From sequence record MH355584.1: 64,000 nt of DNA. One strand, 5' to 3'. Both the position numbers and the translations under genes were made by a program. Origin of the DNA: Escherichia phage vB_EcoM_JB75. Of the stretch, positions 32,118 to 32,949 are shown one piece after another. Positions within the stretch are counted from its first letter, which is position 1. Each line of letters begins with the position of its first letter. The notes beneath the pieces are model-generated. The model saw only the letters and a list, made by a program, of their open reading frames with translations, was not told the origin of the DNA and searched no databases.

Positions 32118-32190
32118 TGGGAATTAGCCAAGTTGGTAAGGCATAGCACTTTGACTGCTAGATGCAAAGGTTCGAGTCCTTTATTCCCAG
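32118..32190 (+). tRNA. tRNA-Gln (anticodon UUG)
   Basis: Cloverleaf by eye: acceptor TGGGAAT/ATTCCCA, anticodon arm TAGCA-CTTTGAC-TGCTA, T-loop GGTTCGAGTCC. Confidence 0.8.
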
Positions 32191-32191
32191 C

Positions 32192-32278
32192 GCGAGAATG
32201 GTCAAATTGGTAAAGGCACAGCACTTAAAATGCTGCGGAATGATTTCCTTGTGGGTTCGAGTCCCACTTCTCGCACCA
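32192..32278 (+). tRNA. tRNA-Leu (anticodon UAA)
   Basis: Acceptor GCGAGAA/TTCTCGC, anticodon loop CTTAAAA, long variable arm, encoded CCA. Confidence 0.8.
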
Positions 32279-32283
32279 AATTT

Positions 32284-32357
32284 GCGGATATCGTATAATG
32301 GTATTACCTCAGACTTCCAATCTGATGATGTGAGTTCGATTCTCATTATCCGCTCCA
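32284..32357 (+). tRNA. tRNA-Gly (anticodon UCC)
   Basis: Acceptor GCGGATA/TATCCGC, anticodon loop CTTCCAA, T-loop GTTCGATTC, encoded CCA. Confidence 0.8.
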
Positions 32358-32367
32358 ATTTAATTTA

Positions 32368-32441
32368 CTCCGTGTAGCTCAGTTTGGTAGAGCGTCTGCT
32401 TTGGGAGCAGAATGTCGTAGGTTCAAATCCTGCCACGGAGA
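32368..32441 (+). tRNA. tRNA-Pro (anticodon UGG)
   Basis: Acceptor CTCCGTG/CACGGAG, anticodon arm TCTGC-TTTGGGA-GCAGA, T-loop GGTTCAAATCC. Confidence 0.8.
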
Positions 32442-32443
32442 CT

Positions 32444-32533
32444 GGAGGCGTGGCAGAGTGGTTTAATGCACCGGTCTTGAAAACCGGCAGTCGCTCCGGC
32501 GACTCATAGGTTCAAATCCTATCGCCTCCGCCA
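32444..32533 (+). tRNA. tRNA-Ser (anticodon UGA)
   Basis: Acceptor GGAGGCG/CGCCTCC, anticodon loop CTTGAAA, long variable arm, encoded CCA. Confidence 0.8.
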
Positions 32534-32538
32534 GTTTT

Positions 32539-32614
32539 GCTGATTTAGCTCAGTAGGTAGAGCACCTCACTTGTAATGAGGACGTCGGCGGTTCGATTCC
32601 GTCAATCAGCACCA
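32539..32614 (+). tRNA. tRNA-Thr (anticodon UGU)
   Basis: Acceptor GCTGATT/AATCAGC, anticodon arm CCTCA-CTTGTAA-TGAGG, encoded CCA. Confidence 0.8.
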
Positions 32615-32615
32615 A

Positions 32616-32690
32616 GGCCCTGTAGCTGGAAGGTTCAAGCAAGCGACTCATAATCGCCAGATGGTGGTTCAATTCCACCCAGGGCCACCA
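32616..32690 (+). tRNA. tRNA-Ile/Met (anticodon CAU; T4-type tRNA-Ile reads AUA after modification)
   Basis: Acceptor GGCCCTG/CAGGGCC, anticodon loop CTCATAA, T-loop GGTTCAATTCC, encoded CCA. Confidence 0.7.
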
Positions 32691-32703
32691 AATTAAGAAT
32701 TAA

Positions 32704-32790
32704 GGGGAGTTATCCCGTAGAGGTAGCGGTGTGGACTGTAAATCCATTGTCATTGCGACTCGGGTGGTTCGACTCCATCACTCCCCACCA
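32704..32790 (+). tRNA. tRNA-Tyr-like (anticodon GUA), long-variable-arm type
   Basis: Acceptor GGGGAGT/ACTCCCC, anticodon arm GTGGA-CTGTAAA-TCCAT, variable arm, T-arm GGTGG-TTCGACT-CCATC, CCA; D-arm is weak so it could be a variant or pseudo-tRNA. Confidence 0.55.
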
Positions 32791-32794
32791 ATTT

Positions 32795-32869
32795 GGATGT
32801 GTAGCTCAGTGGTAGAGCAGTTGACTGTTAATCAATTGGTCCATGGTTCGAATCCATGCATGTCCGCCA
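32795..32869 (+). tRNA. tRNA-Asn (anticodon GUU)
   Basis: Acceptor GGATGTG/CATGTCC (two GU pairs), D-arm GCTC-AGTGGT-AGAGC, anticodon loop CTGTTAA, T-arm CATGG-TTCGAAT-CCATG, CCA. Confidence 0.7.
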
Positions 32870-32873
32870 AATA

Positions 32874-32949
32874 CGAGGCATAGCTCAGAAGGAAGAGCAA
32901 GGACCTTCTAAGTCCTGGGTCGTAGGTTCGATCCCTACTGCCTCGACCA
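32874..32949 (+). tRNA. tRNA-Arg (anticodon UCU)
   Basis: Acceptor CGAGGCA/TGCCTCG, anticodon arm AGGAC-CTTCTAA-GTCCT, T-arm GTAGG-TTCGATC-CCTAC, CCA. Confidence 0.8.

Follow-up and report, generated by a model that had tools for sequence, protein, structure and literature searches.

The tRNA cluster of Escherichia phage vB_EcoM_JB75 belongs to the segB-free T-even type and includes tRNA-Tyr and tRNA-Asn

Phage T4 (NC_000866) possesses eight tRNA genes, the 666-bp GIY-YIG gene segB and the stable-RNA genes rnaD and rnaC. The phages T2L, RB1 and RB3 are devoid of segB and carry genes for tRNA-Met(CAU) and for the tRNAs of Tyr, Asn and Arg (Brok-Volchanskaya et al. 2008, PMC2330249). In crosses of T4 with T2L, segB homes into the tRNA region accompanied by exclusion of approx. 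1,250 bp, and the homing endonuclease SegB cuts tRNA-Asn, its preferred 27-bp site lying inside the T2L gene (PMC2330249). Here, we analyzed the corresponding locus in a stretch of 64,000 nucleotides from Escherichia phage vB_EcoM_JB75 (sequence record MH355584.1), which is referred to as the window. The locus harbors a ten-gene tRNA array including tRNA-Tyr(GUA) and tRNA-Asn(GUU). It is a member of the known segB-free, T2-type tRNA cluster of T-even phages, and the array as such is already known and not unusual. We consider it probable that the region is a segB-free T-even tRNA unit, in which functional tRNA-Tyr and tRNA-Asn serve translational demand and, by dosage, defence, and that T4 lacks the pair on account of segB.

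The tRNA array and its T-even relatives

An ARAGORN run over the whole 64-kb window detected ten tRNA genes, all on the + strand between positions 32118 and 32949, and no others anywhere in the 64 kb. A sequence-only reading of this DNA had proposed the array in the same order and with the same coordinates. Two of its members, a type II tRNA-Tyr(GUA) and a tRNA-Asn(GUU) located between the CAU tRNA and tRNA-Arg, were both called by ARAGORN, the program that had been named as a check, and are genuine tRNAs. Nine of the ten genes scored 59–73 bits (E 1e-11 to 1e-15) against the Rfam model RF00005. The genes, all of them ARAGORN calls, are listed in their order with RF00005 scores and identities to the T4 alleles.

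32118..32191, + strand: tRNA-Gln (UUG); 66.0 bits; 100% identity to T4
32192..32278, + strand: tRNA-Leu (UAA), class II; 59.3 bits; 100% identity to T4
32284..32357, + strand: tRNA-Gly (UCC); 65.8 bits; 100% identity to T4
32368..32442, + strand: tRNA-Pro (UGG); 69.7 bits; 85.1% identity to T4
32444..32533, + strand: tRNA-Ser (UGA), class II; 62.6 bits; 100% identity to T4 over 87 nt
32539..32614, + strand: tRNA-Thr (UGU); 73.5 bits; 98.7% identity to T4
32616..32690, + strand: CAU tRNA, most likely tRNA-Ile2; labelled Met by ARAGORN; not the T4 allele
32704..32790, + strand: tRNA-Tyr (GUA), class II, phage type, 87 nt; 30.2 bits
32795..32869, + strand: tRNA-Asn (GUU), G73, encoded CCA; 72.6 bits
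32874..32949, + strand: tRNA-Arg (UCU), T2-type allele; 65.8 bits; 73.9% identity to T4

Eight of these tRNAs had been described as T4-type. This holds for their anticodons, all of which match T4. The sequences, in contrast, are not all T4 alleles: identity is complete for Gln, Leu, Gly and Ser and nearly so for Thr, whereas the Pro, Arg and CAU genes (65.3% identity for the latter) represent other alleles.

Compared with T4, the window displays the same layout of the transcription unit and the same flanks, with trna.2–4 upstream and rnaD and rnaC downstream, and the segment from Gln to Thr aligns closely. The difference lies in the diverged Ile(CAU) and Arg alleles (65% and 74%) and in the segment between them, where T4 carries segB instead of Tyr and Asn. 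This agrees with the claim that the two tRNAs are absent from the T4 set; T4 is devoid of them because the homing-endonuclease gene occupies exactly their position. A tblastn search of the window with T4 SegB yielded no homologue (best E = 2.0), and no Tyr or Asn remnants were visible beside segB in T4 or T6 by alignment and sequence inspection.

The organization resembles that of T2L, RB1 and RB3, in which, for RB1 and RB3 according to published maps, a CAU-Tyr-Asn-Arg block likewise stands between T4-like tRNAs and the stable RNAs in the absence of segB. The order CAU-Tyr-Asn-Arg-rnaD-rnaC without segB was found in the window as well. The tRNA-Arg of T2 (AP018813) is identical to that of the window, as is the aligned fFiEco06 gene, and the T2 tRNA-Tyr differs by one base. 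Unlike T2, in which an open reading frame (ORF) replaces tRNA-Thr and a second one follows Arg, the window keeps tRNA-Thr and is free of inserted ORFs, and its tRNA-Asn is a second allele with 16 substitutions. T6 has a tRNA-Tyr of 97.7% identity with the same variable arm at the same place after the CAU tRNA. It differs by segB directly following Tyr, by the lack of Asn, Pro and Ser and by a T4-type CAU allele. As the window is devoid of segB, a SegB-driven tandem amplification of tRNA-Tyr as in T6 is not possible in cis here. The T6 segB gene (AP018814; L006 1–422) is deposited as 'serine recombinase', and several of the T2 and T6 neighbors carry implausible transferred names.

The tRNA-Asn gene folds into a clean cloverleaf, in which no non-canonical pairs were flagged, and ends with ...CAUGUCC-G-CCA. 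Asparaginyl-tRNA synthetase recognizes the discriminator G73 and the GUU anticodon, and charging of this tRNA, which has both features, is predicted. The positions that distinguish it from the T2/fFiEco06 allele were located by alignment of window 32795–32869 with T2 (L012 7452–7526) and fFiEco06 (L001 2290–2364). In the anticodon stem and the T stem the changes affect both partners of a pair and preserve the base pairing, while the remaining differences concern the D-loop, the variable region and one acceptor pair (G-C to G-U). The two diverged alleles both maintain the fold, which speaks for both being functional. A sequence resembling the SegB site is located in the 3′ part of the gene.

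32845..32871, + strand: predicted preferred SegB target of 27 bp, GGTTCGAATCCATGCATGTCCGCCAAA, within the 3′ part of the tRNA-Asn gene (motif scan)

This sequence retains the GGTTCRANTCC and CCAR elements as well as G6, A16, G18, A26 and A27 of the published T2L site. It differs from the T2 sequence at four middle positions (12, 13, 14 and 17). Cleavage at this site is predicted; upon co-infection with a segB+ phage, SegB would cut the tRNA-Asn gene in its 3′ part, and the segment would be overwritten.

A database comparison placed the locus among many relatives. Matches to the 1.35-kb region were obtained in 1,030 phage records, at least 80% of the region being covered in 463 of them, with Tequatrovirus LF73P1 as best match (99.0%). 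The Tyr-Asn segment has an exact counterpart (100% identity) in phage JoYop, and all ten tRNAs are annotated in many GenBank phage records. The Tyr-Asn pair, often annotated, occurs in 445 phage records and the T4-type segB in 126, and the eight-tRNA set of T4 is therefore a minority form. Judged from the homing data, it is probably also a derived form created by the homing endonuclease. The array is a feature of Tequatrovirus that has been sampled well, published and annotated and carries little weight as a discovery, and the textbook set of T4 is the less common state in the collection examined.

Structure and family of the phage-type tRNA-Tyr

The tRNA-Tyr gene encodes a genuine tRNA-Tyr of the phage type, although its structure is atypical. 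Its RF00005 score exceeds the gathering score of 29 by little, and only with the acceptor stem shifted by two bases. In an open competition of Rfam models the general tRNA model was outscored by the tRNA-Sec model, whose 34.4 bits are below its own threshold. Read from the sequence (32704–32790), the 7-bp acceptor stem GGGGAGU...ACUCCCC-A-CCA provides G1:C72, A73 and an encoded CCA. It is followed by an extended connector to a 3-bp D-stem, a 5-bp anticodon stem with a 7-nt loop containing U33 and GUA, a long variable arm (variable region of 15 nt, including a GUC/GAC stem) and a 5-bp T-stem. The identity set of the E. coli tyrosyl-tRNA synthetase comprises A73, G1:C72, U35 and G34. The gene meets this set, and charging is predicted on this basis.

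The minimum free energy (MFE) fold of the single tRNA-Tyr sequence was no better than that of shuffled sequence (z = -0.9) and did not reproduce the cloverleaf; tRNA-Asn reached z = -1.1. Because single-sequence MFE was uninformative, covariation within the family was used for tRNA-Tyr. An alignment of 20 distinct phage-type tRNA-Tyr sequences was examined with 500 shuffles and slid registers as controls. In the class II cloverleaf 98.5% of the cells were paired and 12 of the 23 pairs displayed compensatory changes. None of the 500 shuffles reached the observed value and no slid register came close. The compensatory changes lie in the acceptor stem, the anticodon stem and the T stem and extend over at least five lineages of phages or plasmids; the anticodon loop, the variable stem and the T-loop are invariant.

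A weak D-arm had been noticed in the sequence-only reading, and the family alignment confirmed it. The canonical 4-bp register was paired in 63.8% of the cells, and 19 of the 20 homologues contain a C x C mismatch in it; a canonical D-arm, with a 2-nt connector at positions 8–9 and the standard register, was not found in tRNA-Tyr. A 3-bp CCG/CGG stem located one position downstream, after a connector of 4–5 nt, was paired to 98.3% among the 20 homologues and is present as a paired element in every phage-type tRNA-Tyr sequence. It is devoid of covariation support because it is invariant. The odd D-arm is a peculiarity of the whole family, which has not prevented function in T6 and the T5 family.

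These data bear on the possibility that the Tyr gene is a pseudo-tRNA undergoing decay or a fragment of a stable RNA, which merely persists until a SegB-carrying phage replaces the segment. The marginal RF00005 score and the failure of the canonical D-stem would be in line with decay, as would the label 'tRNA-Pseudo-GTA' given to the homologue in the T5-like record H72 and nine loci with a longer connector that ARAGORN missed. Decay is nevertheless highly improbable in view of the compensatory changes in three stems, the invariant loops and variable stem, and the function of close homologues, namely the rescue by T6 tRNA-Tyr (PMC13096335) and the SP15 tRNA-Tyr, whose rescue is abolished by anticodon or stem mutations (PMC11555353). 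An orthologue of 97.7% identity is annotated as tRNA-Tyr by tRNAscan-SE 2.0 with a score of 51.2 (Asn in the same record: 81.8). The array is therefore not a chance match, and rejection by tRNAscan-SE, which had been named as an outcome that would speak against both genes, is not what is seen in this record. Assignment of the gene as tRNA-Sec-like or as a pseudo-tRNA, considered on the basis of the 34.4-bit match, was ruled out by GUA, A73 and the Tyr-type class II covariation.

Sequence comparison revealed relatives of this tRNA-Tyr in several groups of phages. Apart from T6, fFiEco06 shares 97.7% identity, the unrelated Vequintavirus RudolfGeigy 96.6%, a copy on 273 E. coli plasmids (72–112 kb among those listed) 94.3%, and T5-like and FelixO1-like phages 85–87%. 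The family is thus common to T4-like, rV5-like, T5-like and FelixO1-like phages and to phage-like plasmids of approx. 110 kb. When 5,426 E. coli genomes were searched by blastn with the Tyr gene, all matches were on plasmids and none on a chromosome. In one of these plasmids, pEC881_2 (109 kb; locus L007 2421–2667), an Asn-Tyr-Thr-Ser array is accompanied by DNA ligase and GrxA genes of phage-like character. The T5-like phage Lindwurm (85%) shares the 3′ strand of the D-arm (GGUAGCGG), the variable arm (GUCAUUGCGAC) and the UUCGACU T-loop. In contrast, the acceptor and anticodon stems of the T5 family differ by compensatory changes, and its tRNA-Tyr is part of a considerably larger set of tRNAs.

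A pattern scan of IMG/VR for the phage-type tRNA-Tyr yielded 82 contigs. Nine of them (L013, L022, L030, L032, L049, L053, L057, L063 and L076) contain a variant with a connector between acceptor stem and D-stem that is one base longer (UUAAUUCCG or UUAUUUCCG) and is not called by ARAGORN. In phages with this variant tRNA-Tyr is probably under-annotated.

The CAU tRNA had been labelled Ile, which is reasonable although it is not the T4 allele. Its best E. coli match is a gene annotated as tRNA-Ile (81.6% identity). With the ileX/ileY type it shares an identical anticodon stem-loop (AGCGACUCAUAAUCGCC), the pairs C4:G69 and C5:G68 and the acceptor sequence GGCCC.../...GGGCC, while metT differs by its acceptor GGCUA... 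The lysidine-forming enzyme TilS uses the acceptor pairs C4:G69 and C5:G68. The CAU tRNA is most likely a tRNA-Ile2, which would read AUA after the predicted lysidine modification.

The CAU tRNA is 98.7% identical to the tRNA-Ile of RudolfGeigy. In this phage Pro and Thr are only 72–79% identical to those of the window and Arg has no match, yet the CAU and Tyr genes are nearly the same (window 32616–32790 compared with L003 1501–1587 and 2072–2146). This pattern suggests that individual tRNA genes have been exchanged laterally between families of phages.

Codon demand and counter-defence

Codon use was compared between 65 long ORFs of the window and 40 ORFs from a single 50-kb sample of E. coli K-12. 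The most enriched amino acids are Tyr (1.75-fold) and Asn (1.65-fold, tied with Lys). UAU accounts for 35.1 per 1000 codons in the window versus 14.1 in E. coli, and AAU for 47.0 versus 13.5. Codons read by the eight classic T4 tRNAs are enriched 1.6- to 8.3-fold. The idea of codon-usage adaptation, put forward together with the array, is supported by the top position of Tyr and Asn.

According to the reading that we favor, the ten closely packed genes on one strand would form a single transcription unit with rnaD, rnaC and the terminator. tRNA-Tyr and tRNA-Asn would act as functional elongator tRNAs and raise the intracellular pools during infection. These pools would meet a demand for Tyr and Asn that is approx. 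1.7-fold above that of the host, mostly in UAU and AAU codons, and would be replenished when nucleases destroy tRNA-Tyr (Septu, PtuAB of retron-Eco7) or tRNA-Asn (AriB of PARIS).

Demand might suffice as an explanation, if Tyr and Asn were kept for the codon use of an AT-rich phage and any effect on defence were incidental and not selective. The 2.5- to 3.5-fold increase of UAU and AAU and the enriched codons of the other eight tRNAs are compatible with this, and so is the finding that the T6 tRNA-Tyr is not resistant to Septu (PMC13096335). However, Lys is enriched to the same extent as Asn, yet the array is devoid of tRNA-Lys, and a T4-like contig (L031) adds tRNA-His by Asn although His is depleted here (0.61-fold). 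Moreover, tRNA-Tyr and tRNA-Asn of E. coli are multi-copy, abundant species and not rare ones. A defence phenotype of the T6 tRNA-Tyr has also been demonstrated (PMC13096335), and we regard demand on its own as a rather unlikely explanation.

The demonstrated cases of defence concern close homologues. Septu and the PtuAB nuclease of retron-Eco7 cut the variable arm of tRNA-Tyr. T6 tRNA-Tyr counters Septu Ec-B88 by raised dosage, though it is itself cut, and deletion of the tRNA region sensitizes T6 to Septu (Chihara et al. 2026, PMC13096335). Escape from Septu is not open to T4, which is devoid of tRNA-Tyr; T2 is resistant, a property that the searched main text of that study does not link to the T2 tRNA-Tyr (PMC13096335). 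Retron-Eco7 is countered by tRNA-Tyr of T5 and SP15 in a promoter-dependent manner (Azam et al. 2024, PMC11555353). The AriB nuclease of PARIS cuts tRNA-Asn(GUU) of E. coli between positions 40 and 41, and the T5 tRNA-Asn contributes to rescue (PMC12409363). The phage of the window is thereby placed in the group carrying tRNA-Tyr, which T4 lacks for escape from Septu, and a corresponding benefit would be expected for it. The suggestion of counter-defence against host anticodon nucleases is supported via these homologues. The nucleases concerned, however, cut the variable arm or the anticodon stem and not the anticodon.

Instead of acting by dosage, the phage tRNAs might be substitutes that escape cleavage or decoys that bind and block the nuclease. 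Consistent with this, the phage tRNA-Tyr has no chromosomal blastn match to E. coli tyrT/U/V, and its variable loop is 2 nt longer in an explicit alignment of host and phage tRNA-Tyr. The retron-Eco7 work is cited as finding the T5 tRNA-Tyr resistant through its variable loop. At the AriB site (a slash marks the cut), the Asn of T2 and fFiEco06 reads UAAGC/G, with changes at 39 and 41; the host reads UAAUC/C. G39 and G41 are located at positions where substitutions protect the T5 tRNA-Lys (PMC12409363). The T-even tRNA-Thr reads UAAUG/A at positions 36–41 and shares G40 with the barely cleaved tRNA-Thr(CGU) (PMC12409363, from which the AriB-site sequence of the host Thr(UGU) was also taken). 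In contrast, the T6 tRNA-Tyr is cut by Septu at C48 despite the same variable arm, and escape needs gene amplification (PMC13096335). Likewise, E. coli tRNA-Tyr rescues equally well from retron-Eco7 when expressed from a strong phage promoter (PMC11555353), and the Asn of the window, with UAAUC/A, carries the sequence of the main AriB cleavage site. Because the variable arm of the window tRNA-Tyr is the same as in T6, replenishment by dosage is the likeliest mode and nuclease resistance is not; resistant substitutes or decoys appear improbable to us.

Several points weigh against the combined role in demand and defence. tRNA-Asn is only a secondary target of AriB and is not needed for the rescue of T4 or T7 (PMC12409363). 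The site sequence of the window Asn is the one reported for the main target tRNA-Lys(UUU), so that this tRNA may provide no protection from PARIS beyond dosage. The T6 tRNA-Tyr was reported to be relatively unstable and is itself cleaved by Septu (PMC13096335). Furthermore, the window tRNA-Tyr scarcely passes the general tRNA model (30.2 versus 29 bits), its MFE fold is no better than that of shuffled sequence, and the codon reference for E. coli consists of one 50-kb sample with 40 ORFs.

The neighborhood of the two genes extends beyond T-even phages. In 44 of 73 IMG/VR loci (from L013–L094) Asn(GTT) adjoins the phage-type Tyr, and both gene orders occur: Asn-Tyr in FelixO1-like contigs and in contigs with an array of the phage-plasmid type, Tyr-Asn in T4-like ones. 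Tyr-Asn might be a mobile counter-defence module that circulates among unrelated coliphages and phage-like plasmids and is governed by SegB in T-even phages, the Asn alleles reflecting selection at the AriB site. We regard this as a speculative and rather doubtful reading. If it were true, the window phage and T2-type phages would differ in their sensitivity to PARIS, and T4 would stand out by its vulnerability to immunity systems that cleave tRNAs. Less explored aspects of the locus are the apparent movement of its Tyr and CAU genes from one phage family to another, the frequent Tyr-Asn adjacency across lineages and the two Asn alleles that differ at the AriB site. The T4-like contig L031 carries eleven tRNAs, with His between Asn and Arg.

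Stable RNAs, flanking elements and neighboring genes

The array is flanked by elements that are also known from T4.

32074..32089, + strand: small hairpin just before the first tRNA, in the leader shared with T4 (terminator-like scan)
32951..33070, + strand: rnaD homologue, stable RNA species 2 (blastn 84.7% over 118 nt, aligned part 32954–33070)
33077..33215, + strand: rnaC homologue, stable RNA species 1 (blastn to T4 rnaC, 98.6% over 139 nt)
33266..33289, + strand: hairpin resembling an intrinsic terminator (scan; 10-bp stem with 7 GC pairs followed by TTTTT)

From 32100 on, the leader could be aligned with that of T4, and this part displays no differences. The start of the rnaD homologue at 32951 would follow from the T4 arrangement, in which rnaD lies one base after tRNA-Arg. 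No Rfam family passed its threshold for the homologues of rnaD and rnaC. At its 3′ end, the rnaC homologue forms a perfect T-arm-like hairpin (CCGGG-UUCGAAU-CCCGG), which also matches the SegB core GGTTCRANTCC. The hairpin at 33266–33289 is likely the end of the tRNA/stable-RNA transcription unit, which, by analogy with T4, would be co-transcribed and processed by host enzymes. A scan for σ70 promoters returned three sites compared with 4.0 expected in shuffled sequence, and no promoter was assigned.

Two ORFs of 82 and 53 aa (32856–33104 and 33165–33326) overlap tRNA-Arg, rnaD and rnaC and are likely to be false predictions in stable-RNA genes; counterparts have been deposited under the name 'hypothetical protein', for instance in fFiEco06 (L001 2511–2821). 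Downstream of the RNA unit, two paralogous ORFs (33340–33813 and 33939–34502) both belong to phrog_2280, a family of unknown function. Their N-termini (MKSYAQFLNEA and MKTYAEFLTEA) are similar to the N-termini of the internal head proteins, whose genes lie upstream at 30521–31088 (MKTFKEFATK and MKTYQEFIAE).

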